A stretch of 61,705 bases of DNA from an uncultured archaeon (GTDB lineage: Archaea > Aenigmatarchaeota > Aenigmatarchaeia > Aenigmatarchaeales > Aenigmatarchaeaceae), in contig CAYGWD010000002.1 in assembly GCA_964353745.1 (NCBI GenBank), positions 1 through 61,705 on the forward strand, written 5' to 3'. How positions within the stretch are numbered: the stretch's first letter is position 1; each line of letters begins with the position of its first letter. The notes beneath the pieces are model-generated. The model had not been told where the DNA came from and did not search any database. It saw only the letters and a program-made list of their open reading frames with translations. Of the stretch, positions 2,017-59,993 are shown piece by piece. A program made the position numbers and the translations under genes.

Positions 2017-2058
2017 ATGATTTGCCTAGGTTTGGAATCAACTTATAGAAGTAAATAA
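2017..2058 (+). pseudogene. decayed 5' remnant of kae1 (MICLGLE then unrelated sequence and stop)
   Basis: ATG ATT TGC CTA GGT TTG GAA encodes the canonical Kae1 N-terminus MICLGLE. TTTGCCTAGG is shared with the functional copy at 3509-3518. Homology ends after GAA (2037). Confidence 0.6.
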
Positions 2059-2075
2059 ATTATATAAAATTCTAA

Positions 2076-3503
2076 ATGCTAATATTGTCTGAAGGTGAAA
2101 AATTGTCTGAAAAGTATATAGAATTTAAATTAACCGACTTGCCAATAAATGAGTTTTGTATTCTTTTGGAACCCGATGTGCAAAGGAAGTTAATAGAAGA
2201 ATCTGCAGTTAAAATAGCTAAAAAAACAGGAAGAGAATACGGGAAAGTCAAAGATTTAGCAAGATATCTTAAGAATAGGTGTGAAAGTCTCTCTGAGATA
2301 AAAGTAGAATCGCTATGGAACCAGTACATTAGATTATGGAAAATTAATAGAATGTTTATCCCAATTGATTGCATTATTGAATTATGTAAACTGACCAATC
2401 AGAATTCTGAAAAAATTAAAAAACATATTATTAGGCTAAAGCACATAACGGGAAGAAATCATTCTTCAATATCGTTCAATTTCCTTTATGATGAGACCAT
2501 AGCTGGTTTGGGAGAATTGATAAAGTGTGAAGGTCATCTTAAGAAAAATTTAAGACAGTTTAGCTTGGAAAATGCGAGCGTAGACCTGATAAATCACTTT
2601 AAATCACTTCTAAAAGAGTTAGGCGTGAAAAATAAATATGAGTTGTTGAAGGTTGAGACGGACATACCAAAGAAGGCTATTATTAGAAAGGTTCTAATCA
2701 AAGGTAAAGAGATCAGGTTTTATACCAGGTTCAATAAATCTGGAAAAAGAAAGGTTATGTTCCATGACAAATTCAAGTATGGAACTAGAAAGGAATATGC
2801 TATAATAACTGATAGTAATGCGATAAAAGTTGCTGTAAAGATACCATTTAGATTAAACATAACGGCAGAAAGCACTTACGGAATTTCGAGTTCGTCTATC
2901 CATATAGATGTTACAAACATCACATTATCAAAAATTTTACACTTGCTTACAAATGTTCCAAGCGGAAAAAAGTCAAAGATTATTGAGTTTTGTCCGTTAC
3001 TTGGATTATCCCCTTTAATTGTGAAAAGAGAGGCTATAAATGTTATTTTTGCTTCTGAGTGCTGGTTGGAAGGAAATAGGATTCGTATATGCTTGAATAG
3101 TTTAGATTACGTTAAGGATATTTATAGCCTGCTTAAAGGGTTTGGAATGAACCCAATTTTAAGCGATTATAATTATCTTTCAATAAATACTTGGAGAGAC
3201 CTAGAGATATTTGATAAAAATTTTAATTTAATAATTAGCGAGAAGGAATTAAAACTCAAAGAGATGATATCGAATAAGAAGAACTTTAAACATGGAGAAG
3301 GGTTATCAGAAATTCTCAATTTCATAAAAGAAAAAAAATCTGTCTCTGTGAAGGAAATATCATCGAAATTTAACAAAAGTAAAGATGATATATGGCAGCA
3401 TCTCAAGAATGGCGAAAAACAGAATCTTATAGCGAAAAATACAAACTTCTGGCCGTATAGATATTCTTTAACAGAAGGAGGTGAATCATCTCTTGAAAGA
3501 TAA
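2076..3503 (+). CDS. free-standing double-motif LAGLIDADG homing-endonuclease-like protein with C-terminal winged-helix-like region
   Basis: Motifs IAGLGELIKCEGH and FASECWLEGN (acidic residue followed by Gly at the LAGLIDADG positions); C-terminal KKSVSVKEISSKFNKSKDDIWQHLKNGEKQNLI resembles a wHTH; stop overlaps the kae1 start by 11 nt. Confidence 0.6.
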   Translation: MLILSEGEKLSEKYIEFKLTDLPINEFCILLEPDVQRKLIEESAVKIAKKTGREYGKVKDLARYLKNRCESLSEIKVESLWNQYIRLWKINRMFIPIDCIIELCKLTNQNSEKIKKHIIRLKHITGRNHSSISFNFLYDETIAGLGELIKCEGHLKKNLRQFSLENASVDLINHFKSLLKELGVKNKYELLKVETDIPKKAIIRKVLIKGKEIRFYTRFNKSGKRKVMFHDKFKYGTRKEYAIITDSNAIKVAVKIPFRLNITAESTYGISSSSIHIDVTNITLSKILHLLTNVPSGKKSKIIEFCPLLGLSPLIVKREAINVIFASECWLEGNRIRICLNSLDYVKDIYSLLKGFGMNPILSDYNYLSINTWRDLEIFDKNFNLIISEKELKLKEMISNKKNFKHGEGLSEILNFIKEKKSVSVKEISSKFNKSKDDIWQHLKNGEKQNLIAKNTNFWPYRYSLTEGGESSLER

Positions 3504-4492
3504 AACGTTTTGCCTAGGCATCGAAGGTACTGCTCTAGTTTGCCTGCAGAAATACTTTTGGTGTCGGTATTGCTGATGATAAGGGAAACATTCTAGCCAA
3601 TGAAAAATCAATGTACAAACCTCCTCTAGGGAAGGGAATAATACCTCGTGATGCCGCTGACCATCATTCTGAAAATGCAATGACGGTTCTAAGAAAAGCT
3701 TTAGAGAAAGTTAATTTAAAAATGAGCGATATTGATATAATCGCCTTCTCTCAAGGGCCTGGCTTGCCACAGTCGCTTCGCGTTACCGCGGTTTTTGCTA
3801 GAACATTGTCTTTGAAAAATAATAAACCTTTAATTCCAGTTTGTCATCCTATTGGGCATATCGAAATAGGTAAGTTAACAACAGGTGTCAAAGATCCTAT
3901 AATTGTTTATCTAAGCGGTGCTAACACCCAAATAATTGCTCATCTTGAAGGTCGATATCGAATAATAGGCGAGACAGAAAATCTTCCTTTGGGCAATGCT
4001 ATTGATATGTTAGCTAGGGAATTAAATTTACCTATGCCAGGCGGACCCGAAATCGAAAAGCTGGCATTAAGAGGAAATTACATAAATCTTCCATATACTG
4101 TTAAAGGTTGTGATTTAAGTTATTCTGGTATTTTAACAGAAGCAGTAAAGAAATATAATCAAGGCGTTAAAGCAGAAGACGTTGCCTATTCTTTTCAAGA
4201 GACTTGTTTTGCCATGCTAGCAGAAGTGACAGAGAGAGCTATTGCCCATACCGATAAGGAAGAAGTTCTACTTGTAGGTGGAGTGGCTGCCAATAAAAGA
4301 CTGCAGGAGATGCTAAGGATTATGACAGAGGAGAGAGGAGCAAAGTTTTTTGTTGTTCCTCAGGAATATGCAGGCGACAACGGTTCAATGATTGCTTGGA
4401 CAGGAATTCTCGCGTATCAGAAAGGTTATAAAACCACTATCGAGGACAGTCATATCAAACAAAAATGGAGAGTAGACGAAGTGGAATGGTAA
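3493..4492 (+). CDS. kae1: tRNA N6-adenosine threonylcarbamoyltransferase Kae1 (KEOPS), interrupted by a 16-nt putative BHB intron (exon 1 3493..3535, exon 2 3552..4492)
   Basis: Exon 1 (TTG start 9 nt after GGAGGTGA) gives KDKTFCLGIEGTA; exon 2 continues (H)TFGVGIADD. Full-length similarity to archaeal Kae1 (SQGPG, VGGVAAN, GDNGSMIAW). The two parts are in different frames unless 16 nt are removed. Confidence 0.8.
3536..3551 (+). other. putative 16-nt bulge-helix-bulge (archaeal endonuclease-type) intron in kae1
   Basis: hBHBh' fold: helix 3522-3529/3553-3560, central helix 3530-3533/3546-3549, bulges 3534-3536 and 3550-3552, inner helix 3537-3538/3544-3545. The exact junction within the bulges is not determinable from sequence. 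Confidence 0.6.
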
Positions 4493-4564: not shown

Positions 4565-4600
4565 CTAATGATGTTCTTCACAGCTGACCTGGGGACGGCA

Positions 4601-5323
4601 TTAAGTTCTTATTACAGATTCAACATCAGAAGGAGAATATTTTAGAAATTTTGCTTTCATAATACATTTCAAAGCTTCAGTTGGTCTCACATTATCTTTA
4701 AACCTAAACATCCTTTCATCAAACTCTTCCAAACTATTTGCATCATAGACTAAATTAAAAGTGTAAAGAGGTTTACCGCCAGAAAATCTCAGTTTGTCTA
4801 CAGTTTCAATATAAAGCATCGTCCATTTCCTATCCTCTTCTCTGCTTTTGCTTGAATGACCCCAAATAACACAAGGACTGCCAGCAACAGTCATGTATGT
4901 TGGACAATCTGTTTTAAAACCTTCTCTGGTTAAATGAGTTTTTTCTGGGAATGGACAATTTACTAAAAGTTCTCTTTTTCCTTCATAATTTTTAGATACC
5001 TCAATCACATCATCAAAGCTATGCTCTTCTTTACAGGACAGACATGCCTTATCAGCTTCGTCTATATTATTTTCTGGTTTTGACCTTTGCTTTCTATCTC
5101 TTAACCAATAATCAAAATCCTTTTCTTCTGTTCTATCGGTTCCATATTTTAATAATGTTTGAACATCACCATACTGAAGCATGCGAAAAACATTATTACC
5201 ATTAAAAATTCCTTGTCTTTCTAATTCATCCAAAATTCTATTTCCTATTCTTTCTATAAGAAATCTATCTACAGTAACAACTAAAGTATTATTATGTTTG
5301 TAAGATTTCATAAGATGCTCCAT
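4601..5323 (-). CDS. hypothetical protein (240 aa, several Cys/His clusters)
   Basis: Long open frame; no family recognised. Confidence 0.5.
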   Translation of the reverse strand: MEHLMKSYKHNNTLVVTVDRFLIERIGNRILDELERQGIFNGNNVFRMLQYGDVQTLLKYGTDRTEEKDFDYWLRDRKQRSKPENNIDEADKACLSCKEEHSFDDVIEVSKNYEGKRELLVNCPFPEKTHLTREGFKTDCPTYMTVAGSPCVIWGHSSKSREEDRKWTMLYIETVDKLRFSGGKPLYTFNLVYDANSLEEFDERMFRFKDNVRPTEALKCIMKAKFLKYSPSDVESVIRT

Positions 5324-5354
5324 TAGATTAAGTTATTCTAAAATCTTTAAATTT

Positions 5355-5543
5355 TTGATTAGTGATATTCTAATTATGTCATATACACAAACTTTACAAC
5401 CAATAAAAGATGAAATGGCTATATTGAAAAGGGAGAGCCCTTTTGAAGCTATGAAATATGAAATGACCATGTTAAGAAAAGAGAGTCCTTTGGAAGCTCT
5501 TAGGAAATATGTAAGACAACTTAGAAAGGAGATGGAAAGATGA
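5355..5543 (+). CDS. small hypothetical protein with internal tandem repeat
   Basis: Two ~16-aa units EMAILKRESPFEAMKY / EMTMLRKESPLEALRKY. Confidence 0.3.
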   Translation: MISDILIMSYTQTLQPIKDEMAILKRESPFEAMKYEMTMLRKESPLEALRKYVRQLRKEMER

Positions 5544-5574
5544 TGAAAGAAGAAAACCGTAGGTTGTCCTTTTT

Positions 5575-5595
5575 CTTCAAATCCGGCCCTCCGCA
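5575..5595 (+). repeat. tRNA 3'-end-like repeat, copy B (CTTCAAATCCGGCCCTCCGCA)
   Basis: Same family as copies A, C and D; preceded by an 8-bp hairpin, 5549-5556/5571-5578. Confidence 0.6.
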
Positions 5596-16258: not shown

Positions 16259-17551
16259 TTGTTAGAGTTGAAGTTTATGCCAAATGATTTGAAAGAATAT
16301 TTAACACAGGAAAGAATAGAGTTAGAAAAGACTCAAGATAATCCTGAGCTTATTGAAATGCTAGATGATTGGTTAGATGCTTCTAGTGAGCAAGAGATTT
16401 TAGAAAATCCTAACCTTTTAAATACTATTGTCAAAGAAATTAGCAAAAAAGTAGTCGGAGAAGAGGAAACAATCAAGACAATATTGTTATCTTGTTTTGG
16501 TTCAAAGGTCGAGAACCATCAGATAGCCTCTTATAATCTATTGATTAATTCTGAATCTGGAGCTGGTAAGGATTTTGTAGCGTATAACACGATACAGATT
16601 TTACCCAAAGAAACCTGGCTGAAGAGGACCAGGATAACTCCTAATGTCTTTACTTATTGGCATAACCCAAAGTTTGAGCCTGAATGGTCCTGGGATGGAA
16701 GAATTTGTTATCTTGAAGATATTTCTGATACTGTAATGAACGCTGAAGTTTTCAAAACTATGTGTTCTAGTGGTTCTAGTGCTACTGTCTTGATAAATCA
16801 GATACCGATAGATATAGAGATAAAAGGAAAACCTGTAATGGTCCTAACTTCTGCTAATGCCTCTCCCAATACAGAAGTTACTAGAAGATTTACTATTGTT
16901 AACTTGGATGAGAGTGTTAACCAAACAGAAGCTATCATGAAAAGACAGGCCAATCATGAAACTAACGGATTGGAAGTTGAATATAATAAAAATCTGACAA
17001 ATGCTTTGGCCAAACTGAAAAGAATAAAGGTAAAGATACCTTATGCTGAAGTTTTACCTGAATTTTTACCTAAGAACTCAATTATAATGAGAACTCATTT
17101 CCAAAGATTTTTAGATCTAATAAAATCTTCTTGTGCATTACATCAATATCAGAGAGTTCAAGACGAAAATGATTTTTATTTAGCTGATGGTCAAGATTAC
17201 GATATTGCTAGAGAGGTATTGTTGAAGCTAACTTCTAATCCTTTTATGATTCCTTTAACTCACAACGATAAGAAATTGTTAGAAATATTTGATGACCTAG
17301 TAGAACCTATTAGTGCTAAAGAGTTGGAAGCTAAGGTTAACTTTCTGTCAGTAGCTCAGATGTATAACTTACTCAACAAGCTATCAAAATATGGATTTTT
17401 AGAAAAAACTATAAAGGAGTATGAAGATAGCAGAAAAAATTCTACTGCATGGTTTAAATCGGATTCAATTAAAGTTAGTCCTTTAAAAATTCCAAAATGG
17501 TCTGAAATCAAAGAAAATCTGCTGAATAATAAGAATGGTCAGAATGATTAG
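16259..17551 (+). CDS. P-loop NTPase, putative replication (SF3-helicase-like) protein of the element
   Basis: Walker A SESGAGKD, Walker B-like ICYLEDISD; largest ORF of the element; followed directly by an iteron array. Confidence 0.45.
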   Translation: MLELKFMPNDLKEYLTQERIELEKTQDNPELIEMLDDWLDASSEQEILENPNLLNTIVKEISKKVVGEEETIKTILLSCFGSKVENHQIASYNLLINSESGAGKDFVAYNTIQILPKETWLKRTRITPNVFTYWHNPKFEPEWSWDGRICYLEDISDTVMNAEVFKTMCSSGSSATVLINQIPIDIEIKGKPVMVLTSANASPNTEVTRRFTIVNLDESVNQTEAIMKRQANHETNGLEVEYNKNLTNALAKLKRIKVKIPYAEVLPEFLPKNSIIMRTHFQRFLDLIKSSCALHQYQRVQDENDFYLADGQDYDIAREVLLKLTSNPFMIPLTHNDKKLLEIFDDLVEPISAKELEAKVNFLSVAQMYNLLNKLSKYGFLEKTIKEYEDSRKNSTAWFKSDSIKVSPLKIPKWSEIKENLLNNKNGQND

Positions 17552-17630
17552 AACAATAAGAATGATTAGAACGATTAGAATAATTCTAATGATTCTAATC
17601 GTTCTAATCGTTATTGGCCTCTAATCGTTC
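17546..17630. repeat. iteron-like array: 3 direct GATTAGAA(C/T) copies facing 4 inverted (A/G/C)TTCTAATC copies
   Basis: Direct copies at 17546, 17564 and 17573. Inverted copies at about 17584-17590, 17592-17600, 17601-17609 and 17619-17626. Confidence 0.65.
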
Positions 17631-17749
17631 TACTAACAGTAATTGATTAATAAAAAATGGTGTGAACATGGCTAAAAAAATAAGAATTGTTATTGTTGAA
17701 AACGAGTTAAAAGAGTTCCAGCTCGGTTTGAGACGTTTAATCCGACAGA

Positions 17750-17965
17750 TTGAGAAGGGAGTTTGAGATGAACGATAAATTATTGATAAACAGGCTGAAA
17801 AAATTGGATTTAATGATTTCAGCTCTTTTGAAAACTCTTAAGGAGCTGGGAGAAAATGAAAAGGAAACAAAGGAATTAACATCCTTTTCAATCAAACAAT
17901 CCAAGCTCTTTTTGAAAACATTTTATGGATCTGAAAGTCAAAAAAAATCTTCTGAGGGTTATTGA
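17750..17965 (+). CDS. hypothetical protein
   Basis: Open frame in the element. Confidence 0.3.
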   Translation: MRREFEMNDKLLINRLKKLDLMISALLKTLKELGENEKETKELTSFSIKQSKLFLKTFYGSESQKKSSEGY

Positions 17966-18209
17966 AATGAGATACTGTAAAACCTGTCAGGAATGGAGAG
18001 AAGATTTAAAGAACTGCCTTAGAAGGAATCATGATATAGATTGGAACAATTTCAGAGAGGATAAAGTTGGCATGGATGTATGCCTAAACGAATAAAACAC
18101 ATCAAAAGAATTCAATTTTATTATTTGTTATAAACATTACCTAACTGTTGTTTGTTGTTTCATTAATAATAGGATGTTAAAACAATACAATTTTTAGAGG
18201 TTGAGAAAA

Positions 18210-18392
18210 ATGCCAAGATTGATAAAACTAAATAAGTTTGGCAGTCTTTCAGTTGTAATACCTATTGGCATTGTAAGGTCTGCAAAGCTTCAAGCTGGAG
18301 AGGAAATGGATTTTGAGTTGATGAATGCCAAGCCTCTGGTTCTGAAATTGAAAAGAAAAGAAGAGCTGGAAAAAGACGAGTGGAGTCAATAA
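18210..18392 (+). CDS. AbrB/SpoVT-domain protein
   Basis: PRLIKLNKFGSLSVVIPIGIVRSAKLQAGEEMDFEL; ATG at 18210 preferred over the TTG at 18201. Confidence 0.5.
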   Translation: MPRLIKLNKFGSLSVVIPIGIVRSAKLQAGEEMDFELMNAKPLVLKLKRKEELEKDEWSQ

Positions 18393-18413
18393 AAAACTAA
18401 GGAGAATGATAAA

Positions 18414-18677
18414 ATGTCAAAGAAAACTGTTGGTTGTGATCCATACAGAACCGATGAAGAGAAAACTTTGAATTTCAAATTAAACAAGGCTGAACTGATA
18501 GCAATCGAGTCAGGCCTTCAAATGTTTGCTATAGAATGTAGAGATGATAAAAGCATGAGAGAATCAGTAGAAGATGCTCACTTTACTCTCAGGGATTTGA
18601 TAATACAGGAGCATGAGCAAAGGAAGGAAATCTCTAGCAAGGAATTAGAAGAAAAACAGGCTTTTGGTAGAGGATAA
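18414..18677 (+). CDS. hypothetical protein
   Basis: Open frame; stop overlaps the next start. Confidence 0.4.
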   Translation: MSKKTVGCDPYRTDEEKTLNFKLNKAELIAIESGLQMFAIECRDDKSMRESVEDAHFTLRDLIIQEHEQRKEISSKELEEKQAFGRG

Positions 18678-19138
18678 TGGCTGAATTAAAATCTTTGGCA
18701 GATTCAGAAAATGAAGTGATGCTCTCTAGAAAAGAGTTTGATTTCAAACTTGCTCTGATCTATCAGATAAATCGTATAGGTCAGTTGTCAGCTAGTGTTT
18801 TAAACATCAGTTCTGGTGATGCAGGTTTCAAGGAATATACTGATGAATTAAAGGTATTGTCAGCTTACTATCTGGAGAGTGCTATTTCTATTCTTGAAAA
18901 TATGTTAGCCTTCTATCTGGATGAAGAGGTAAAAAATAAATTAAAATATCTTGAAGCTGACTTTTTGTCTAGGCAGGATCATATAGATAAACAAGTTTTT
19001 GGAGGAACAGTATTTGGCTCTTACTACAATAGAAGAGATTATGCCTTGAGGAAATTTAGAATCCTGATGGAGTTCATGGGCAAGAAAGGTTTGTTATTAG
19101 AGGAGTTAGGAAATCTAGGAGAAGAAGGTTTGTTATAA
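18677..19138 (+). CDS. hypothetical protein
   Basis: Open frame, translationally coupled on both sides. Confidence 0.4.
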   Translation: MAELKSLADSENEVMLSRKEFDFKLALIYQINRIGQLSASVLNISSGDAGFKEYTDELKVLSAYYLESAISILENMLAFYLDEEVKNKLKYLEADFLSRQDHIDKQVFGGTVFGSYYNRRDYALRKFRILMEFMGKKGLLLEELGNLGEEGLL

Positions 19139-19929
19139 TGCCTAATGTTATTATCAGAGATATTCAAGACAAAATTCTAAACAAGAATCAAAACTTTATC
19201 TGTGCCATAGTTGGAGGCGTTGGGAAAGGTAAGAGTTATATCGGTTTGAGATGGTGCGAACTTATCTCTCCCAGGTTCAATCTTGATTATGTTGTATTCT
19301 CAGCCAAAGATTTTCTAGCTTTGGTCAATTCTGATAAGTTGAAAAAGGGAGATTCTATTCTTTGGGATGAAATGTCTGTTGATATGTATTCTAGGAACTT
19401 CATGGAACTTCAGAACAAATTAATAAACCATGTTCTAACAACTTTCAGAACTAAGAACATAGCCTTATTCTTTACAGCACCTTCTTTAAAATTCGTAGAC
19501 GTGGGAGTTGGTAGACTATGCCATGCTGTTATCGAGCCTGTATCTATCAACAGGGAAAGACAATCTAATATCTTCAAATTCAAATGGATACAGGCTAATC
19601 CTATCACAGGGAAAATAATATATCCTTTTCCTCACATAGTTTCTAAAGGTAGAATCAAAAGAATTGAACGAATGGAATATAAGAAATCTAAATTTGCTGA
19701 TGCTTATGAAATAAAGAGAAAGGAGTTTGCTAACAAGTTATCCAAATCAGTAGAGAAGGATATACTCAAAGCTGAATCATCCGAGAATAGAAAGAAGCAA
19801 ACTGATGAAGACATCATAGAATCAGGAATCAGGGAAGGTATTGATTGGAAGAAAACTAGAGATGTCTGTGCAAGGTTTAACATTCCAAGAGATAGAGCCT
19901 ATAGGATTCAATCTAAAGTGAGCATGTGA
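19138..19929 (+). CDS. P-loop ATPase (Zot/terminase/packaging-ATPase-like) with C-terminal HTH-like tail
   Basis: Walker A GGVGKGKS, Walker B ILWDEMS. Confidence 0.5.
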   Translation: MPNVIIRDIQDKILNKNQNFICAIVGGVGKGKSYIGLRWCELISPRFNLDYVVFSAKDFLALVNSDKLKKGDSILWDEMSVDMYSRNFMELQNKLINHVLTTFRTKNIALFFTAPSLKFVDVGVGRLCHAVIEPVSINRERQSNIFKFKWIQANPITGKIIYPFPHIVSKGRIKRIERMEYKKSKFADAYEIKRKEFANKLSKSVEKDILKAESSENRKKQTDEDIIESGIREGIDWKKTRDVCARFNIPRDRAYRIQSKVSM

Positions 19930-20010: not shown

Positions 20011-21240
20011 TTATTTTGATTTGATTTCTTTCAGTTTGTTAGAAAAAGCTTTGCATAGATCAGGATATTCTTTCATCATTATCCTAACTGCTTCTTGCAT
20101 GGATATTATTTCTCTGCTTTCTTCATCCAAAGGCATGGCACAATTGCCACAGAATTTATTAGTCGGAGAGTTTGGAGTGTTGCATTTAGCACAAATAATA
20201 TAATCTAATGCTCTGTCTATGCTGGTTGTCTTTTGCTTCAGGCCTTTCTTTTCAAGCATTACATCGTCTATATCCTTTGCTGATAAGCTGATGTATATCT
20301 CAGGCATACGAGAGCTTCCTGTCCATCCAGCAAACTTTTTCAACCAAGATTCTTGATAGCCTTCTCTTGCTAATTCAGTTAGCCTAGAATGTCTAAACAG
20401 ATGTGGATGAACTCTTTTTCTTATCTCTGTTCTTTTAACAGATAGTCTTATCATTCTGTAAATTCCAGCAATAGTTAATCTGTTTCCATAATCCTTTTTA
20501 GAAAGACATATGAACATAGGAGAATCTGGATTGTCTTTGTAAGGATGGTTGTTTATCCATTCCTTCAATATCAAAGCTGAGTCTATAATCCTAATCTTTC
20601 TTTGGCCTGTCTTTCCAGAGACAGATAGAACATAACCAAAGTTATCAGAGACAGCATCCTTTATGCTCAAGTTGGTTATCTCTCCAATACGACAAGCTGA
20701 TTCATAGAGAAGCAATATGATTGCCTTGTCTCTCAAGTTATCAGTTCTGTTTGCTATCGTCAAAATTTCTTCCTTTGTCAATAGCTGGTCTGCTGGTAAG
20801 TGATTATTATTTCCTCTTCTCAAACTGATCCATTCGACAACATCAGGATAACCTTTTTTCATCTTATAGTATTTTTGAAAGAATATCTTGATTGTTGTTT
20901 TTCTTCCTATCTTTGTTGGTTCTGATAGCTTATCTATAGATAATAGGTAGCCTTCAACATCCTTTCTTGTTATCTTTTTCAAAGGCTTCCTTACTTTTAG
21001 AAAGAACAATCTTAATACAATCAGATAATTCCTTCTTGAAGATAGAGTTAATGATTTCAATACATTATCCTTATCAAATTCTCTCAAGGCTTCCAAGTGT
21101 TCAGGCAGTATTTTTTCTGATTCCTTCAGCTTCTCTGCATCTTCTCTAAGGATATTTCTCCTATCAAAAGTAGTGTTGGATAGCATGGTCTTTATATGAT
21201 TCTCCAGCTTCTCTGCATCTTTATTAATTTTTGCATCCAT
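20011..21240 (-). CDS. tyrosine recombinase/integrase with C-terminal double zinc ribbon
   Basis: HPHLFRHSRLT (HxxR), catalytic Tyr region MPEIYISL, SAM-like N-domain, CAKCNTPNSPTNKFCGNC. Confidence 0.85.
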   Translation of the reverse strand: MDAKINKDAEKLENHIKTMLSNTTFDRRNILREDAEKLKESEKILPEHLEALREFDKDNVLKSLTLSSRRNYLIVLRLFFLKVRKPLKKITRKDVEGYLLSIDKLSEPTKIGRKTTIKIFFQKYYKMKKGYPDVVEWISLRRGNNNHLPADQLLTKEEILTIANRTDNLRDKAIILLLYESACRIGEITNLSIKDAVSDNFGYVLSVSGKTGQRKIRIIDSALILKEWINNHPYKDNPDSPMFICLSKKDYGNRLTIAGIYRMIRLSVKRTEIRKRVHPHLFRHSRLTELAREGYQESWLKKFAGWTGSSRMPEIYISLSAKDIDDVMLEKKGLKQKTTSIDRALDYIICAKCNTPNSPTNKFCGNCAMPLDEESREIISMQEAVRIMMKEYPDLCKAFSNKLKEIKSK

Positions 21241-44416: not shown

Positions 44417-45652
44417 ATGGGTAATGGGATTGTTAGTCTTTGGTCCTTACCAGAAGATAAAATTTATTTAGGTTTGGAAAAAGAATTCAAAGAAAAAATT
44501 TTCAATTCAGCAAAAGAATATGCAGGAACATGGGACAATCTTGGTAAAGAACTTAATTTAAAGGTAAATAAGTACGGTAATTGCAAAATTATAGAAAGTG
44601 CAAGATGTAAAAGATTTAGTCTTTCATTACTCAATAAAATTATAGATTATTTGAATTCTAAGGGTATAAGCATAGATAAAAGCCTCATAGAAAGAAAGGT
44701 AAATGTTATTTCTTCTAAACGTGGAGGATCGAACAAATTGGCTAACAGCATTTTCAATCCAAAATTGCCTTTTAATTTCGATACAATTGATGGGTCTACT
44801 GTAATATCCTCTATTTTTCACGATGGTGGAATCAATAGTAGAAGATTGCCTCATTACAGTAATCCTGAGAATCTAGAGTTAAGGCAAAAAGTTTACAAAG
44901 CTTTTACAAACGTTTTTGGAGAATTTGTGTCTAAAAAGAGCAATCCTATAGAAAATCAACAGTTATACTTTCCAAAAATAGTTGGGATTGTTCTAACTTA
45001 TGGATTAGGCATACCTTGTGGGAGAAGAGTTATAAACAATCCATCTATTCCTGAATTCATATTTAATTCTTCAGATGATATCAAATCAGCATTCATTCAA
45101 CAAGCTTTTGATGACGAGTCTCATGTTCATAGAACTGAGAGAAATATAAGCTTGAAATTATCGTCCGGATCAAAAAATCCTTCAAGCCTCATCATTGGCA
45201 TAAAAGACCTTTTAGAGGATTTGGGAATAGAGGCTAGCGGTCCTCATTATATCGATTACTATGAAACCAAAAAAAGTGTCAGAGCTTACAGATGGTATAT
45301 ATTAATAACACACCAGGATAATCTAAAAAGGTTCTATGAGAAAGTAGGGTTTCATTCGGCATACAAGCAAAAGAGACTTCAAGAGATAGTTCAGACCATC
45401 AAATGCCATCATTATTCTACTAAGAAAACGCATGAAATATATCAAATTGCTTGTAGAAATCTCCAAAAAAGATATGAATTTATAACCAGTAGAGAACTTG
45501 CTATAGAGTTAGGTAGGAGTCAAGAATTAGCCAAGAAAATTATTCAGAAACTTGTGAACAATAAAATTCTATTAGTTAAAGAATGCCGTCATGGAAACAG
45601 AGGAGCTAAATATGTTTTAGGTGATAAACATGAATCAGTGTGCATTGTGTAA
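44417..45652 (+). CDS. free-standing double-motif LAGLIDADG homing-endonuclease-like protein with C-terminal wHTH
   Basis: VISSIFHDGG and AFIQQAFDDES motifs ~92 aa apart; C-terminal ITSRELAIELGRSQELAKKIIQKLVNNKILL; stop overlaps the nre start by 23 nt. Confidence 0.65.
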   Translation: MGNGIVSLWSLPEDKIYLGLEKEFKEKIFNSAKEYAGTWDNLGKELNLKVNKYGNCKIIESARCKRFSLSLLNKIIDYLNSKGISIDKSLIERKVNVISSKRGGSNKLANSIFNPKLPFNFDTIDGSTVISSIFHDGGINSRRLPHYSNPENLELRQKVYKAFTNVFGEFVSKKSNPIENQQLYFPKIVGIVLTYGLGIPCGRRVINNPSIPEFIFNSSDDIKSAFIQQAFDDESHVHRTERNISLKLSSGSKNPSSLIIGIKDLLEDLGIEASGPHYIDYYETKKSVRAYRWYILITHQDNLKRFYEKVGFHSAYKQKRLQEIVQTIKCHHYSTKKTHEIYQIACRNLQKRYEFITSRELAIELGRSQELAKKIIQKLVNNKILLVKECRHGNRGAKYVLGDKHESVCIV

Positions 45653-46856
45653 AGGTAGATTATGGTGTGGAAAAGGTCGTTGCTCACTTTTGATTAAGTT
45701 TTACTCTTATACAAAAGCAAAACCTCTCATTGATTCAACCATGCTTAGCGGTTCGAGCCCTCCATCGTGCTTTATTGGTTCCTACGGCTATCCCAAGGTA
45801 TTCGTAGGTCCAATGCTTCCTCCTCAACACGGCGATACGAGCATAATGGACACGCCTGAACTATGGGCTAACAAATCAATACAAGAGATAGTTGACTTTA
45901 GATTCCAGTTGGTGAGAGGAAAATACCTGACCAACATAAAGAATTTTGATGGAAAGATAGTTGAGATAACAAGAGAAATAGCTCTTGCAGAGAATTCGCC
46001 AGACGCGGAGGTCGAGTTCAAGACGAAACCCACTGGAAGAATTATTCTAAATGACGAGGTCCAACCATTCGGTCCTTCTGCATCAATGATTAAACTAGAT
46101 GTGGGAAATTATACGTACAATAAGAGAGTGGAAAAAGCGTTTTATGATACTGATTTGAAAGCCAAGGATGCTGTCATTAATTTGTATAAGGATGGTTTGC
46201 TGGTCTCTAAGATACAGAAAGCATTTTCAGTCGGCGCCTTTGGCTTGGAAAAGAACAGGAAATTCGTTCCAACTCGTTGGAGCATTACTGCTGTTGATGA
46301 TACGTTAGGTAAGAATATGATTGAATACACCAAAACCTATCCTATAATAAATGATTTCAAAATTTATGAGCATAACCAACTAGACAATAAATGGATTGTC
46401 CTTATGATTCCGAGGGAATGGTCTTACGAATTGATAGAGGCTTGGTATCCAAAGACATTGTGGAATCCTGATAGCGTGAGAACAGAGATTTTTTCTGACC
46501 ATGAATTTTATGACGGTAGAAAGACTTATGCAGAGATAGGCGGATGTTACTATGCAGCCAGACTTGCGGCCAACGAGTTGTTGAACAAGGAGAGAAGACA
46601 GGCAGGAGTCGTAATAATGAGAGAGGCTCATCCAGGATACATCATGCCCGTAGGAGTGTGGAATGTGAGGGAAGCCGTCAGACAGGCCGTTAAAAAGGAA
46701 CCAATGAGTTTTTCAACTTTGAACGAGTCACTAGCATATATCTCTAAGAAGATGGATATTCCTGTTAAGAAATGGATAGAGCATAGTGCTGTATTGAGAG
46801 ACACTCTGCAGCAAAAAAGATTGGTAGACTTTTTGAAGGTGAAAGAATGGAAGTAA
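45630..46856 (+). CDS. nre: Nre-family (archaeal DNA-repair-associated, DUF650/651-like) protein
   Basis: N-terminal CxxCKGxxWCGxxxC, ~408 aa; the family call is from memory of the N-terminal Cys motif and size. Confidence 0.5.
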   Translation: MNQCALCKGRLWCGKGRCSLLIKFYSYTKAKPLIDSTMLSGSSPPSCFIGSYGYPKVFVGPMLPPQHGDTSIMDTPELWANKSIQEIVDFRFQLVRGKYLTNIKNFDGKIVEITREIALAENSPDAEVEFKTKPTGRIILNDEVQPFGPSASMIKLDVGNYTYNKRVEKAFYDTDLKAKDAVINLYKDGLLVSKIQKAFSVGAFGLEKNRKFVPTRWSITAVDDTLGKNMIEYTKTYPIINDFKIYEHNQLDNKWIVLMIPREWSYELIEAWYPKTLWNPDSVRTEIFSDHEFYDGRKTYAEIGGCYYAARLAANELLNKERRQAGVVIMREAHPGYIMPVGVWNVREAVRQAVKKEPMSFSTLNESLAYISKKMDIPVKKWIEHSAVLRDTLQQKRLVDFLKVKEWK

Positions 46857-50851: not shown

Positions 50852-51259
50852 TTATCTTTCAATATAGCTCTTTATTTCTTTTATAAACATCCTAACATCT
50901 ATAAGGCTATTTTTAATTATTTCTTTCAAATGCTCAACTTTAATCCCAGCATACCTATGAACTAGAAGATTACGAAATTTTGCCATTTCAGCTAATCTTT
51001 TTCCAAGCGTTTCAGATATAACTTTGTTTTCTATAAGTATTGTAAACATTCTTGAATATTCCTCAGCTCTTTCAAAACCCTTTGCTGATATTATGTGATT
51101 GGCTATATCTATACAAGCTTCTGTTATTTCAAACAAAGAATATTTTACAGCTTGAATATCTCTATATTCCTTTAATTCTTTCCCCTTATAATTTTCAAGG
51201 AACTTTAAATCATCTTCTATTATATCAAACTTTGCTTCTATTAGATCTTTATCTATCAT
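50852..51259 (-). CDS. hepT: HEPN-domain toxin HepT (DUF86)
   Basis: RNLLVHRY (Rx4H) motif, 135 aa; overlaps the upstream MNT gene. Confidence 0.8.
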   Translation of the reverse strand: MIDKDLIEAKFDIIEDDLKFLENYKGKELKEYRDIQAVKYSLFEITEACIDIANHIISAKGFERAEEYSRMFTILIENKVISETLGKRLAEMAKFRNLLVHRYAGIKVEHLKEIIKNSLIDVRMFIKEIKSYIER

Positions 51260-51651
51260 ACGCCTAACCTTTCTGTTCTCATTTTATCATATTCCTTATA
51301 AAATGGCTTAAAATCTATATATTTACGTATCATGAGTGTTTCAAATCTTATCCTTTTACTTTCATCTCTTGAAAATATTAACTTTCCATATTTTAAAACT
51401 TGATTAACAAAGCGTAAGGGTTTGTCATTTAAAACAACAACCTCAACATTTTTTAAATTTGCTTTATTCTCTATTTCTAAAGCCAACTTAACCTCATAAA
51501 AGATATTTTTTTTAAATTTTTCTTTTAAAACTATTCCAATATCAATATCACTACTTTTTCTCATCTGACCCCTTGCTAAAGAGCCGTACAAGTAACTAAA
51601 AGCAATTTCTTTATGTTTTTCTAGTATTTTGGATATGCCTTTTAATTCCAT
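51256..51651 (-). CDS. mntA: minimal nucleotidyltransferase antitoxin MntA
   Basis: GSLARGQ...SDIDIGIV. Confidence 0.8.
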   Translation of the reverse strand: MELKGISKILEKHKEIAFSYLYGSLARGQMRKSSDIDIGIVLKEKFKKNIFYEVKLALEIENKANLKNVEVVVLNDKPLRFVNQVLKYGKLIFSRDESKRIRFETLMIRKYIDFKPFYKEYDKMRTERLGV

Positions 51652-51882: not shown

Positions 51883-52296
51883 TCATAACTTTACATATTT
51901 TTTTATTAAATTTCTTTTCATAATGAAAATTTTGTTTATTATTTCTTTTCCCTGCTTGAATTCTACCTTGGTTCCATAATAATTTATGCTGTTCCTTATC
52001 CATCTAAGCCTGTCGAATTCCTCGTACTCAAATTCCTTAAATAGATTTTTCAGCAGTTCTCCGATGCAGATGTGAGATAAAACTTTATAACCCTTATAAA
52101 TGCAAATCGCTTCCATCGCCTCCCTTAAAGAATCGTATGCAAGAGAGACATATGCTGAGATGTTAACGCTATCCACGGACGCCTTCCTTACAGCATCCTC
52201 TTTTATCTTGGACATTTCTATCAAAGATTTGATGAGATTTTCATCCACTTCTGTTTTCTTTATCAAACCTTTTTGGAAGCATTCCTCTATGTCCAT
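51883..52296 (-). CDS. HEPN-domain protein
   Basis: All-helical 137 aa, RWIRNSINYYG region; paired with the upstream NTase. Confidence 0.6.
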   Translation of the reverse strand: MDIEECFQKGLIKKTEVDENLIKSLIEMSKIKEDAVRKASVDSVNISAYVSLAYDSLREAMEAICIYKGYKVLSHICIGELLKNLFKEFEYEEFDRLRWIRNSINYYGTKVEFKQGKEIINKIFIMKRNLIKKYVKL

Positions 52297-52808
52297 TTTA
52301 CATTACCTTGCACAACAATGCCGTTTAAAACATTGTTAATAAGATACTCGTTCTTCAGCTCTTTAACATTATTTACAACGAAGAGTTGTAATTTTCTGTT
52401 GATTTTTTCCTCAAACCTTTTTGTGTCAAAGCTATCTGTCTTTTCAGAGATTATAAGCAAGTCAAAGTCGCTTGTTTCTGTGTCAAGGCCGCGAGCAGCG
52501 GAGCCGAACAGTGTTATTGCCGGTTTCAGATAGAAGATGTTCAAGGCATCGAGCAGACCAGATTCTCTCAGCTTTCTTAAATTATAATATAATTTTAAAT
52601 CTCTGTAGTCATTGCTTTCTAGGTTTGCCTTGTACAAAATGAAAATTCTTTCCTTCCTTTCTTTCAAGAAATTCCCCTTTGCCAATTCCTTAAGCTCCTT
52701 GCTTGCCGTGGCCGGAGAGACTTTTAGAACTCTGGAAGCCTCCCTTACGTTAAATTCTCTGCTCGGCTCCTCAAAGAATATTCTCAACATCTCAAATATT
52801 TCGAACAT
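52287..52808 (-). CDS. wHTH + nucleotidyltransferase (MNT-type) protein
   Basis: GSAARGLDTETSDFDLLI; N-terminal wHTH REASRVLKVSPATASKELKEL. Confidence 0.75.
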   Translation of the reverse strand: MFEIFEMLRIFFEEPSREFNVREASRVLKVSPATASKELKELAKGNFLKERKERIFILYKANLESNDYRDLKLYYNLRKLRESGLLDALNIFYLKPAITLFGSAARGLDTETSDFDLLIISEKTDSFDTKRFEEKINRKLQLFVVNNVKELKNEYLINNVLNGIVVQGNVKWT

Positions 52809-53212
52809 ATATTGTACACCGTTCCTCTCTTGACTCCTGTCTTTTTAGCGATTTGTCTATAGCTAAGGCCTTCTCTTCTTAATTTAAGAATTTCTTCTAT
52901 CTCTGTCTCGTTTACAATATGTGAAGAGTACGAATCTATCAATTCCGTCATTTGCTTTCCTTTGACATCAAAATTCGATCCAACTAATTCATGAAATTTG
53001 CGTATATTATGATACCCCAATATTTTCAATCTATAACAATTTTTATCTTTGTATAAACGGCTGATTATTCCAATGTTTTTTAATTTTTCACGTATTCTTT
53101 TCATGATGAGGATATTCTGGTTTGTTATGATTATTTGTTTGCCTTTGACCGATACGCAACCCTCTCCATCGAAAAATCCACGAATATACTCCAAAGTAAT
53201 TTGATTGTTCAT
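52784..53212 (-). CDS. single-motif LAGLIDADG endonuclease-like protein with C-terminal HTH
   Basis: YIRGFFDGEGC canonical motif; LRREGLSYRQIAKKTGVKRGTVYNI HTH; stop overlaps the downstream gene start by 25 nt. Confidence 0.75.
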   Translation of the reverse strand: MNNQITLEYIRGFFDGEGCVSVKGKQIIITNQNILIMKRIREKLKNIGIISRLYKDKNCYRLKILGYHNIRKFHELVGSNFDVKGKQMTELIDSYSSHIVNETEIEEILKLRREGLSYRQIAKKTGVKRGTVYNICSKYLRC

Positions 53213-53571
53213 TTTATCTTACTATTGTTTAAATATATGAACAACTGTTTAAATAGCTTTCTATTATGAGATTTTCTGAAGATTCATCTAAGGATGAAAC
53301 ATCTTTAACACATAATGATTTTTACGCGTTTTCGTAATTGCTGTGCAATTCAATTCATAGTGCTCCCCAATCACGAATGTAAACCGATTTCAGATAAAAA
53401 TAAATAATATAATTAACAATTATCTTATGAAAGTGAGTTCATTTTTTAAGTAAAACTTATCAATTACTTATGTAATGACTGCGTAATGGGAGATAGGTAT
53501 TAATATTTTTGTTTCCTATTGTAAGTTATGTTTCGCTTAAAAAAGAAACAAAAAATAGGGGGTGTGTAGTT

Positions 53572-56500
53572 GTGAAAGGTTTATTAGGTAAAGCAAAAAT
53601 ACCAATAACAATTTTTTCCGTGATATTATTAGCAATTTTCGTGATTAATTTTGTTCTACCCTCTATCGCTGTAAGCAGCAGCGCTGTCATTACAACTGAT
53701 AAAGGAGATTATTCACCTGAAGAGACCGTACTGATTTCTGGAAGCGGATTTGCGCCGAGTTCTCCGTTAACTCTTTCTGTTACAAGGCCTACTTTACCAG
53801 ATTATACTGTTGATTCATGTTCTGTTTCCTCTTGTGATTTATCAATATTTTTAAACGGCCCTTTAACCTCTGATGAGGAAGGTTCGTTCTTCAACTATCC
53901 TTACAAGTTAGACGGTATCACAGGTGCGTACACTGTTGATGTGAGTGACGGAACAATATCGGCTCAGACAACTTTCACAGATTCTAGAACAATAAACTGG
54001 GTAGCTTTGGATGGTGGCACACATTGGACACCTCCTTCACCAAGTTCAAACGGAGATGCTGTAACTGTTGTACCTGGTGCTAATATCAATGCTGAGTTAT
54101 CAGTTACAACAAGTGGAAGTAATGATTATGATGACTGGAGATGTACGGAATACAGAATAGAAGGCTATAGCACAGTAGAAGTAGACCATGGTAATCATAA
54201 TGGAGATGGTACATACACAGATACTATTTCTATAACTGCTCCTCCTACTCCAGGAGTTTATGATGTAAGATTTGAAGCATATGAAGATGATAATTGTGAT
54301 GGGGGTGATAGTACAACATTAACATTAACAGACGCTATAACTGTTGAAAATCCTCAACCATTCTGCGGCGATGGTATAATTAATGGTAACGATGTATGTG
54401 ACGATGGAAATCAAAACAATGGAGATGGTTGTAGTTATCCAGCATGCCAAGTAGAATCAGGTTGGTCATGTACGAGTACAAATCCAAGTGTTTGCAAAAC
54501 TATTAACCCAACACTTCCAAGTTCTTGTGGAATAGACATGGTTCTTATAATAGACAGTTCTGGAAGTATTAGCAGCAGTGAATTAACCCAAATGAAAGAC
54601 GCATTCAAGGGATTTGTAGATGCGTTTTTGCCAAACACGCCGACACAGATAGCTGTTGTTGACTTTGATAGTCTTGGACATTTGGTTCAAGATTATACAA
54701 GCGATATTGATGATATAAAAAGTGCGATTGATTCTGCAACTAGTGGTGGAAATACTAACTGGGAAGATGGATTGAAAGAAGCCCATGATGAATTTAATAA
54801 TAGAGCTGATAAACCTGATTTGTATGTATTTGCTTCTGATGGAAATCCAAATACAGTTGGAGACACCTCTCCGTCTTCAGTTAGTGAAAGTGTAGCAGTT
54901 GCAGCGGCTGTAGCTAAAGCTAATATAATCAAATTAGCTGGTGTTAGAGTAATCACGCTCGGAATTGCGATTGGGAGCGGTGGTGCTACTAACTTAAAAG
55001 CAATATCAAGTGATGATGCTTATTATGACTCAGATTTTGAAACACTTGCAGATACTCTTGCTCAAATTGCAGAAGAACTTTGTGGAGGAACAATAACTGT
55101 TAAAAAATTAGTTGATGGAAGTCCAGCAAGCGGTTGGACATTTACTACATCTGTAACAGGAGGAAGTTCAGTTCCAACATCCTCAACAACAGGTGGAGAC
55201 GGTTTCATAAATCCTGTATTTGATATAGATATAGATGATACAACAGCAACTGTTGACGTAACAGAAACTCCAAAAGGTGGATATTTCTTTGTTAGTGCTA
55301 ATTGTATTGATCAGAATCAAAATCCTGTTGGAACACCCGGACAAGGAACAGTTACTGGAATAACTATCGAAAAGAATGATGCTATTTACTGCGAGTTCCA
55401 AAATACAGAACATGAATGCGAAGTAGATGAAGATTGTACACCAACTCAAGATCCTTGTTATGAAACACACTGTATGAAGGGTGAGTGTGTTGATGTATTT
55501 GCTGATAACGATGGTCCAGACACATCAAATATTGTTGTCGATCCTTATTACAATAATGGTATTTTTAATTTGACTGCAACAACACAAGACCAATGTTCTG
55601 TTATAAAAACAGCTGAATATTTTGTCGGTTTTGTTAATGGTGGTGTAGGTTCTTGTGATCCAGATGCACCTGTAAAAGGAACAATCTATCCTGCAGACGA
55701 TGGAAGTTTTGATTTAGATAAATTACTTGAAAATCTTTTGAAAAAGAATATAGTTTTCCGCAGTGACGGTGTTAACTGGGCATGTGTAAAAGCTCAGGAC
55801 AATGCAAACAACTGGGGTAACTGCAAATGTGTTAACTTTGAAACTGATGTATTACCACCAGATTGTCCTTATGACATTTATTTAGACAATGTTTTGTATC
55901 CAGATGAATACCTTATATGTGGAAACAATGCTTGGTTGAATGCAACAGTTTGCGACCAAGAGTCAAAAATGCAGGGTGGAGAATACTTCTTAGACATAAC
56001 AATTCCACCAGTTCCAACACCTTGGTCTGGTTTCTGGATGAATACTCTATATAACTTCACAAGACAAGACTCTTGGAAATGCTCTATAATTGGAGCTTTA
56101 GTTGATACGAGCAATTTGGCAGATGGAACTCATTATATAAAACTTAGAGGTAAAGACACTGCAGAGAACTGGGGCAAGATTTCAGAATGTTTGGGCGTTT
56201 CTTTCGTAAGGGACACAACAGCACCATCAACAACAAAGAATGTTGATGAAACAAAGATTAGGTGCGGCATAACAAGCGACGATGAAAAAGGGAATAGTAT
56301 TGAGCAATGTTGGTACATACAGCAAGGTACTCACATTCATCTAACTGCTTCAGATCCAGACCCCCAACAAACAGGAGAATTTTCTGGTTTGGACAAGATA
56401 ATGTGCCAGTTCAGATGGAAATTGAACTGGGAAGATGATTGGAGTGCATGGTCTGCACCAGCAGAATGTCCGAACCCAATAGTTTTTAATGAAGATTCTT

Positions 56501-59072: not shown

Positions 59073-59993
59073 ATGAATAAAAAAATAATTTTGGTTTGCA
59101 GCATATTTTCTTTTATTTTGTTAGTTAGCAATGTATATGCATTTTGTATAGACAGGACTCCGCCTTCAGCCCCTGGAAACTTGGTAATTCATGACAGTCC
59201 ATATGATGCAGACGGGAACATGACTTTAACTTGGACAGCGGCTACTGATGGTCCATGTCCATCTTCTGCTGTATTATATTACAAGATTTACAGAAGTAAC
59301 GACAGCGTTAATTTCACTTTGATAGGAAATACTGCATCAGTCAGTTTTGATGATTTTTCTTCTCTGCCAAATGGAAAATATTATTATCATGTGACAGCCG
59401 TTGACAATGTAATAGACAATCCTCACGAAGGGCCTGCAGTCGAGGGATCAACAACTGTTGGCGAGGCACCATCGACACCATCTCCACCATCTAGCGGAGG
59501 CGGCGGAGGAACTACTAGCGGAGGCGGCAGTTTCAGTGGCGGTGGATTACCACCAACTTGCACAGAGAAATGGAATTGTACAGACTGGTCTGAATGCATA
59601 GCAGGAACGCAGACAAGGGCATGCAAGGACGATAACAAGTGCGGAACAACCATAAACAAGCCAACAGAATCGCAAACATGTTCCATATCAACTGGCGGAG
59701 CAATAGGTGGAACAACAACCCCAGAGTGCACTGAAGATTGGTTATGTTCAGAATGGTCTGATTGCATAGAAGGAACAAGAACCAAAACCTGCGTTGATAA
59801 GAACAATTGCGGAACAGCCATAAGCAAGCCGACAGAGGCCGAGACATGTACGGTTTCACCTGCAACAGGACTCTTCCTATCCATGAACACTCCAGTAGGA
59901 TACGGAATTGCAGCTTTGATATTAGCAGCGATAGTTGCAATAATTTATTTCTTCTTCAAGAAGAGAAAGGCATACAGGCACAGAACAAAGTAA
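59073..59993 (+). CDS. membrane-anchored surface protein (signal peptide, FN3-like domain, G/S/P linker, two Cys-rich TSP1-like repeats, C-terminal TM)
   Basis: PPSAPGNLV...LTWTAATDG...YYKIYRS; repeats CTEKWNCTDWSECIAGTQTRACKDDNKCGT / CTEDWLCSEWSDCIEGTRTKTCVDKNNCGT; C-terminal hydrophobic helix plus KKRK. Confidence 0.7.
   Translation: MNKKIILVCSIFSFILLVSNVYAFCIDRTPPSAPGNLVIHDSPYDADGNMTLTWTAATDGPCPSSAVLYYKIYRSNDSVNFTLIGNTASVSFDDFSSLPNGKYYYHVTAVDNVIDNPHEGPAVEGSTTVGEAPSTPSPPSSGGGGGTTSGGGSFSGGGLPPTCTEKWNCTDWSECIAGTQTRACKDDNKCGTTINKPTESQTCSISTGGAIGGTTTPECTEDWLCSEWSDCIEGTRTKTCVDKNNCGTAISKPTEAETCTVSPATGLFLSMNTPVGYGIAALILAAIVAIIYFFFKKRKAYRHRTK

Follow-up and report, generated by a model that had tools for sequence, protein, structure and literature searches.

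Reading frame of kae1 and its predicted splice product

How does an archaeon obtain a complete Kae1, the synthase of N6-threonylcarbamoyladenosine at position 37 of tRNA (t6A37), when the reading frame of the gene is broken close to its start? The question is raised by a stretch of 61,705 nucleotides (nt) from an uncultured archaeon of the Aenigmatarchaeota (contig CAYGWD010000002.1, positions 1 to 61,705; hereafter the window), in which kae1 carries a short insert. This insert is very probably a 16-nt archaeal intron of the bulge-helix-bulge (BHB) class, located at 3536-3551, after base 1 of the His15 codon. All coordinates follow the numbering of the window, related loci are designated Lnnn and database proteins Pnnnn.

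In terms of reading frames, the first one reads (M)KDKTFCLGIEGTA, starting at TTG 3493 or at an alternative start, GTG 3481, and is stopped by TGA 3574-3576. A second frame opens just past TAG 3536-3538 and reads NTFGVGIADD... to TAA 4490-4492. Between them, 19 nt (3535-3553) stand in place of one codon. An earlier account of the locus, made from the letters alone (the sequence-only reading), had described this break between GIEGTA and TFGVGIADD together with both stops, and every one of its sequence statements held when the frames were read again.

Excision of 3536-3551 gives a Kae1 of 327 amino acids (aa) reading GIEGTA-H-TFGVGI. The predicted spliced RNA junction is ...GGUACUGCUC joined to AUACUUUUGG..., and the predicted junction peptide spans GIEGTAHTFGVGI. 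Shifting the cuts by one position in either direction places Asn or Leu in the window instead of His. Cuts between bulge residues 2 and 3 are the published convention for BHB substrates (PMC2738675). The sequence-only reading had cut after the second bulge nucleotide to obtain GIEGTA-H-TFGVGI, a result reproduced in the window, and the same cut gives His in 20 of 20 loci (see below).

The predicted spliced product scores 468 bits against TIGR03722 arch_KAE1 (cut-off 375), covering profile positions 1-320 of 323, and matches the P. abyssi Kae1 (PDB 2ivn) with E = 9.5e-113. Its residues 1-14 map to 3493-3534 by tblastn. The N-terminal strand-turn-strand with GIEGTAH-TFGVGI matches the profile from position 1 and aligns to residues 3-20 of 2ivn, which reads “GIEGTAHTLGIGI” at the junction position and has His there. 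The same residue is found in 42 of the 53 intron-less homologues examined, in agreement with the earlier statement that His is usual at this place in Kae1. Finally, the ratio of non-synonymous to synonymous substitution rates (dN/dS) over the whole spliced coding sequence (CDS), exon 1 included, is 0.09 against L002 and 0.13 against L001. Judging by these rates, the spliced kae1 is under purifying selection.

RNA structure at the junction

We folded positions 3515-3567 with RNAfold. The minimum free energy (MFE) structure consists of an outer helix of 13 base pairs (bp; 3517-3529/3553-3565, four G.U), the central helix and the AAA bulge. This hairpin has -19.5 kcal/mol and z = -3.87; of 200 dinucleotide shuffles, none reaches so stable a fold. 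The central helix CUGC/GCAG (3530-3533/3546-3549) and the AAA bulge at 3550-3552, both proposed from the letters, are present in the MFE fold. The 8-bp outer helix of that proposal (3522-3529/3553-3560) is real but too short, as RNAfold extends it to 13 bp.

As for the proposed inner helix AG/CU, it can form, but it is absent from the MFE fold and is not conserved in homologues. The trinucleotide UCU (3534-3536), earlier taken as the 5' bulge, is a bulge only if this 2-bp helix (3537-3538/3544-3545) forms, and otherwise starts a 12-nt terminal loop. Since AG/CU is not in the MFE, the loop is the safer description.

When both strands of the window were scanned loosely for BHB motifs, 805 matches were obtained, compared to about 690 in shuffles, so the motif by itself is not rare. 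In none of the other matches is the outer helix as long as in the kae1 element.

Conservation and covariation in related loci

Loci were gathered in three ways: metagenome contigs were searched with a degenerate DNA pattern, a protein-guided scan covered the GTDB species genomes, and additional loci came from look-ups. Four pattern matches (L004, L008, L014, L015) were chance hits outside kae1 and were dropped. We found 20 distinct intron-bearing kae1 sequences, the window included, in each of which the insert follows the C of the His15 codon (C/AT). Their sources are independent assemblies of NCBI, JGI, ENA and Logan. Those genomes that bear a name are Aenigmatarchaeota metagenome-assembled genomes (MAGs) and one Woesearchaeota MAG (L075). 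The window itself is part of a DPANN chromosome, and its best matches are MAGs labelled as uncultured archaeon or Aenigmatarchaeota.

The insert has 16 nt in the window, as first proposed, but this length is not fixed, with homologues having 12-21 nt (Table 1). The intron loop sequence varies freely among homologues. The exon-1 motif LGIE[GS]TA and an upstream start are found in 20 of 20 loci; exon 1, the start codon and the stretch from the insert to ATG 3611 are likewise conserved as coding in all of them. The unspliced reading meets a stop in every locus, including the in-frame variants of 12, 18 and 21 nt.

Pairing statistics were obtained from the alignment of the 20 sequences, with the partner strand slid by 1-3 columns and 500 shuffles as controls. 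The central helix is paired in 20/20 loci, its pair 2 being U-A in 11, C-G in 8 and U.G in 1, and it is retained in the own MFE fold of each of the 20 variants. In the outer helix, 92.7% of cells are paired over the 20 loci, with 4 pairs changed on both sides. Over the whole structure, pairing reaches 94.4%; the slid controls have 33-44%, and none of the 500 shuffles equals the alignment in pairing, in double-sided changes or in covariation score. An alignment of kae1 from relatives had been named as a check of the intron; over the 20 loci it places the insert at the same site, with compensatory helix changes kept.

The 3' bulge is a 3-nt A[AUG]A in all loci (AAA in 17, AUA in 2, AGA in 1). 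A cut after its second nucleotide gives His in 20/20, and this is the sole cut position giving His in all loci; in many of them, alternative cuts yield Asn, Asp, Tyr or Leu.

Two structural classes are present. The first, hBH-loop, comprises 18 of the 20 loci, which have a strong outer helix (h) and the 5' site in a terminal loop. The second, HBh', comprises two loci from GTDB genomes (L034:2017-2086 and L041:1999-2068), both with 21 nt, a 5-bp inner helix (h') and a 4-nt loop. These two differ by a compensatory C-G to A-U change in the inner helix, and their outer helix is lost because the Ser codon is TCG. The 12- and 13-nt variants are unable to form an inner helix.

In terms of BHB class, a 4-bp central helix (H) and a 3-nt 3' bulge are found in 20/20 loci, the bulge lying under an outer helix in 18/20, together with a predicted cut junction that restores the frame and the conserved His. 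The strict hBHBh' form is another matter. In the window, h' has 2 bp at most and lies outside the MFE fold, while L034 and L041 have a 5-bp h' without the outer helix. The label “textbook hBHBh'” of the sequence-only reading is therefore abandoned for a relaxed motif (18/20 hBH plus terminal loop, 2/20 HBh').

Table 1. Position of the kae1 features and of the upstream open reading frame (ORF) in the window, and insert lengths by locus.
Feature	Position	Strand	Description
ORF of 475 aa	2076-3503	+	Weak LAGLIDADG_3 match (24 bits), winged-helix-like C-terminus; stop 3501-3503 inside the kae1 start region
Shine-Dalgarno-like element GGAGGTGA	3477-3484	+	10 nt 5' of the proposed kae1 TTG start; read from the sequence, putative function
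kae1 exon 1	3493-3535	+	TTG start, 14 codons (M)KDKTFCLGIEGTA, plus C as base 1 of the His15 codon
Outer helix h, 5' strand	3517-3529	+	Codons G-I-E-G and base 1 of T; partner 3553-3565; MFE fold
Central 4-bp helix H, 5' strand CUGC	3530-3533	+	MFE fold; paired in 20/20 loci
5' cleavage-site trinucleotide UCU	3534-3536	+	Predicted cut 3535/3536
16-nt predicted intron UAGUUUGCCUGCAGAA	3536-3551	+	From 5' bulge nt 3 through 3' bulge nt 2; excision brings back the frame and the His codon CAU
Variable loop AGUUUGCCU	3537-3545	+	Possible 2-bp inner helix AG/CU around UUUGC; unpaired in the MFE structure
Central helix H, 3' strand GCAG	3546-3549	+	MFE fold
3' bulge AAA	3550-3552	+	3-nt bulge in the MFE fold; predicted cut 3551/3552
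kae1 exon 2	3552-4492	+	AT as His15 bases 2-3, then TFGVGIADD... to TAA 4490-4492
Outer helix h, 3' strand	3553-3565	+	Base 3 of the His codon, then codons T-F-G-V; MFE fold
Insert of 12 nt			L011
Insert of 13 nt			L001, L003, L005/L012, L007, L009/L039, L013
Insert of 16 nt			Window, L002, L035, L046, L051, L075, L084/86/87, L088, L089
Insert of 17 nt			L006
Insert of 18 nt			L010
Insert of 21 nt			L034, L041

The Shine-Dalgarno-like element is kept in L002, as GGGGGTGA.

As for protein databases, the entries closest to the window (P0001, P0002, P0104) are shortened gene calls of 293 aa, and their contigs carry the insert at the same place. Together with P0037, P0040, P0052 and P0055, they are N-terminally shortened calls of loci L001-L003 and L084-L089, with 293-306 aa compared to about 322-330 aa. 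These calls are short because the intron is not modelled. Where named by their source, the shortened entries bear the ordinary name of the full-length enzyme.

Codon choice in genes with and without the insert

The outer helix consists of the codons G-I-E-G-T and (H)-T-F-G-V, so the same 13 positions were measured in intron-less homologues. In the 42 of these with His, 8.0 of the 13 positions pair, against about 12 of 13 in most intron-bearing genes, and the run of pairs starting at the junction never exceeds 1. The residue before Thr is encoded as TCN Ser in 29 of the 42 intron-less genes, whereas 18 of the 20 intron-bearing genes have GGN or AGU, a codon that pairs with the Thr codon. From the pairing gap and this codon difference, it follows that codon choice keeps the helix only in genes that have the intron. 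The protein motif brings some complementarity of its own, and may for that reason have allowed an intron to settle at this site.

Proposed mechanism

In the transcript, the coding stretch for G-I-E-G-T would pair with that for (H)-T-F-G-V to form the 13-bp outer helix, and the next bases, CUGC, would pair with the intron GCAG to form the 4-bp central helix. The AAA bulge would present the 3' splice site, with the 5' site placed symmetrically at the start of the terminal loop (relaxed hBH-loop). The tRNA-splicing endonuclease EndA would cut between nucleotides 2 and 3 on each side, and an RtcB-type ligase would join the kae1 exons. Spliced mRNA would then yield the normal 327-aa Kae1 (...GIEGTA-H-TFGVGI...). 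Unspliced mRNA would yield a peptide of 27 aa (from TTG) or 31 aa (from GTG 3481), or else an N-truncated protein without the GIEGTAH nucleotide-binding motif.

The interpretation as a BHB-class intron draws on an RNA structure that is conserved and covaries, on a frame that excision would restore exactly, and on the purifying selection acting on the spliced gene. From these we infer cutting and joining by EndA and RtcB, and efficient splicing.

Several observations weigh against this interpretation. The intron-less genes already pair at 8 of the 13 positions, meaning that the conserved protein motif accounts for part of the outer helix. Using the L084 lineage, which is the best sampled, we searched 5.8 billion proteins for the spliced product; no spliced (cDNA-derived) full-length form was found among them, only shortened genomic calls with 100% identity, the next match having 85%. 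Similarly, a Pfam scan of about 60 ORFs of the window returned no EndA or RtcB. Archaea encode both, and their presence in the genome of the window is assumed on that basis.

Lastly, the motif is relaxed, with an inner helix of 2 bp at best that is not in the MFE fold, and relaxed motifs require an endonuclease of broad specificity (PMC5829648). Their cleavage is assigned to (alpha-beta)2 and epsilon2 EndAs, and loop-bearing alpha4 EndAs are reported in several DPANN lineages with many disrupted tRNA genes (PMC5829648).

Alternative explanations

Translational recoding stimulated by the hairpin, either as a programmed frameshift or as the bypass (hopping) known from phage T4 gene 60, would also produce a full-length protein. 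A stable hairpin does lie at the frame break, and the inserts of 13 and 16 nt both shift the frame by +1. However, the 17-nt insert shifts it by +2, and those of 12, 18 and 21 nt are in frame and contain stops; six lengths in three frame relations follow no single frameshift rule. The junction splits the His codon (C/AU), so no matched take-off and landing codons regenerate His, and the sole GCN downstream of the take-off GCU in the window, GCA 3546-3548, lands out of frame. The invariant 4-bp helix and 3-nt bulge, with their covariation, form an endonuclease recognition motif and not a known recoding signal. We regard recoding as very unlikely.

A pseudogene, in which a small insertion inactivated a kae1 that is now decaying while another copy or a host provides the function, is slightly less probable still. 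It would agree with the shortened gene (293-306 aa) given by gene callers, and with the reduced genomes and frequent host dependence of DPANN archaea. Against decay stand the dN/dS of 0.09-0.13 over the spliced CDS and the full-length profile match. The insert also occupies the same nucleotide position in 20 diverged loci, where compensatory changes keep the helix and codon choice is tuned. Furthermore, no second kae1 was found in the window or, by genome scan, in seven intron-bearing GTDB genomes.

To the same very low degree, we consider that the insert could be retained and that the cell could use a 293-aa product from ATG 3611, with exon 1 as a relic. The ORF at 3611-4492 is indeed what gene callers report. 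Such a product would lose the N-terminal strand-turn-strand with GIEGTAH-TFGVGI, and in 20/20 loci exon 1, the start and the region from the insert to ATG 3611 are conserved as coding.

Metagenome assemblies contain indel errors, but a spurious 16-nt indel is next to impossible here, with a near-identical insert in L002 (an independent Logan assembly), related inserts in 18 further distinct NCBI/JGI/ENA sequences, and three sequences (L084/L086/L087, L005/L012 and L009/L039) each recovered from at least two contigs or data sets. A group I or II intron or an intein was rejected, given that the insert has merely 12-21 nt and contains or causes stops, and that an Rfam search of the window gave no match.

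Evolution and possible mobility

In a neighbour-joining tree of Kae1, genes with the intron are scattered among those without it. Several clades contain sister pairs of each kind, L075/L072 of the Woesearchaeota among them. This pattern implies repeated loss, gain or transfer, as for cbf5.

We compared kae1 of the window (3517-4489) with that of L001. Over the 180 nt that follow the intron region, identity is about 70-76%; it rises to 97-100% at alignment positions 270-540 and is about 80-88% afterwards. L001 has the 13-nt intron type in a window-like gene body. Such mosaic identity in the alignment indicates recombination between intron-bearing lineages.

Compared with the intron-less L090, the flanks of the window are 91% and 97% identical and kae1 77%. 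The window has extra DNA at 2038-3560 and 4566-5575, that is, on both sides of kae1. From this arrangement, it looks like the kae1 allele was replaced as part of a cassette, which could have been driven by a homing endonuclease.

The LAGLIDADG-like ORF at 2076-3503 is present in the window and L002 only, and has no sequence match in PDB. As a general cause of the intron it was rejected: the intron is also found where a methyltransferase gene directly abuts kae1.

We put forward, as a rather doubtful proposal, that the intron is a gate on Kae1 synthesis or that the intron-bearing allele is mobile. As a gate, it may tie the synthesis of the t6A37 enzyme to EndA/RtcB capacity, making it by analogy a functional archaeal counterpart of the IRE1-XBP1 frame-switch splicing. 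If mobile, the intron allele may be carried in a roughly 3.5-kb cassette with the LAGLIDADG-like ORF directly upstream. Mobility would fit “collaborative homing”, in which a mini-intron shields the target site of the endonuclease.

Other features of the window

Two further LAGLIDADG_3-like ORFs are free-standing. The first (44417-45652, + strand, 27 bits) runs 32 nt into the start of the Nre gene (45621-46856), an arrangement also seen for the LAGLIDADG-like ORF at kae1; no similarity between these two LAGLIDADG-like ORFs was detectable. The second (52784-53212, - strand, 52.6 bits) has a C-terminal helix-turn-helix (HTH). It adjoins a nucleotidyltransferase-HTH ORF (51883-52808, - strand), which comes after a HepT-like/nucleotidyltransferase (MNT) toxin-antitoxin pair at 50852-51651 (- strand). 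This stretch may be a small accessory island.

A tyrosine recombinase (20011-21240, - strand; Phage_integrase, 79 bits) has a C-terminal zinc ribbon and adjoins three ORFs without Pfam match (16259-19929). This region may be an integrated element. At 17552-18413, we observed 862 nt with no ORF of at least 80 aa on either strand, no Rfam match and no tRNA.

ARAGORN, with or without its intron mode, finds no tRNA gene in the window whose introns could serve for comparison. Among other short-intron candidates of the window with an outer helix of at least 7 bp, nothing was comparable to kae1. Some BHB candidates would fuse neighbouring ORFs and were rejected, as they join complete separate genes (proteasome beta and ProRS; RNase PH-domain exosome genes of Rrp41/Rrp42 type). 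Lastly, an ORF of 1852 aa (53509-59067, + strand) is followed 5 nt on by an ORF of 306 aa without Pfam match, which lies in another frame (59073-59993, + strand). A weak BHB-like match (6-bp outer helix, 3 G.U) could fuse the two, and is no better than chance.

Comparison with known systems

The predicted kae1 structure is like that of pre-tRNA BHB introns, including their relaxed hBH, HBh' and BHL forms, in having a 4-bp helix between 3-nt single-stranded cleavage sites. Both relaxed tRNA-intron forms, hBH-loop and HBh', occur among the kae1 variants. The inserts, of 12-21 nt, are at the low end of the archaeal tRNA-intron range of 11-175 nt (PMC2738675), as the earlier comparison with the shortest tRNA introns had it. 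Unlike tRNA introns, the host is an mRNA without a tRNA body, and the outer helix is coding sequence kept by the choice of synonymous codons.

Similarity in working only is seen with the IRE1-dependent splicing of HAC1/XBP1, which is spliceosome-independent and removes a very short intron whose excision shifts the frame. The XBP1 intron has 26 nt, and in metazoans its exons are joined by RtcB. A role of RtcB in XBP1 splicing is also described in PMC8718801. The IRE1 system of eukaryotes differs in its kinase/RNase, in its twin 7-nt stem-loops and in being a regulated stress switch.

In terms of mRNA, the intron of Haloferax volcanii HVO_1309 (Schwarz et al. 2020, PMC7714728) is, as predicted for that of kae1, a substrate of the splicing endonuclease outside Crenarchaeota. 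It lies in the 5' untranslated region, interrupts no reading frame and, unlike that of kae1, is verified in vivo and in vitro. According to a 2020 paper, no BHB intron in mRNA had been reported besides this one and that of cbf5; a 2023 review mentions “at least two archaeal genes” as mRNA substrates, with more expected. The literature agrees here with the sequence-only reading, which had called BHB introns in protein-coding genes rare and known from crenarchaeal cbf5. Our literature search, whose coverage left out most subscription journals so that an earlier description is possible, found nothing linking a BHB intron to kae1 or to DPANN protein-coding genes.

The kae1 intron is a real feature with a mechanism of known kind, and is new in its gene, its lineage and the depth of its natural variation. 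It would be the second archaeal ORF interrupted by a BHB intron, in another superphylum and in a universally conserved essential gene. If so, mRNA splicing by the tRNA endonuclease is no crenarchaeal oddity. The systematic shortening of kae1 by gene callers affects annotation and completeness estimates, leaving entries of 293-306 aa without the nucleotide-binding N-terminus. Furthermore, the natural variants of the 20 loci map which parts of the RNA matter, and are a ready panel of substrates for the specificity of DPANN endonucleases.

The closest known case is the intron of the cbf5 pre-mRNA in Desulfurococcales and Sulfolobales (Watanabe et al. 2002; Yokobori et al. 2009, PMC2738675). Both are short introns within the CDS of an RNA-modification enzyme, with a BHB-like, often relaxed structure made of exon and intron sequence and predicted cuts between bulge residues 2 and 3. 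Both have a patchy distribution implying gain and loss, and gene callers mis-annotate both as frameshifted or truncated. They differ in host gene, a pseudouridine synthase for cbf5 and the tRNA t6A37 synthase for kae1, and in lineage, Crenarchaeota in one case and DPANN in the other (Aenigmatarchaeota-like and Woesearchaeota MAGs). The position of the kae1 intron, 14 codons from the start, is a further difference. Splicing of cbf5 is proven by cDNA sequencing and in vitro cleavage, whereas that of kae1 is predicted. That both ORF-interrupting cases are in RNA-modification enzymes is suggestive without amounting to evidence of regulation, and this recurrence raises the question of a coupling between tRNA splicing and tRNA modification.

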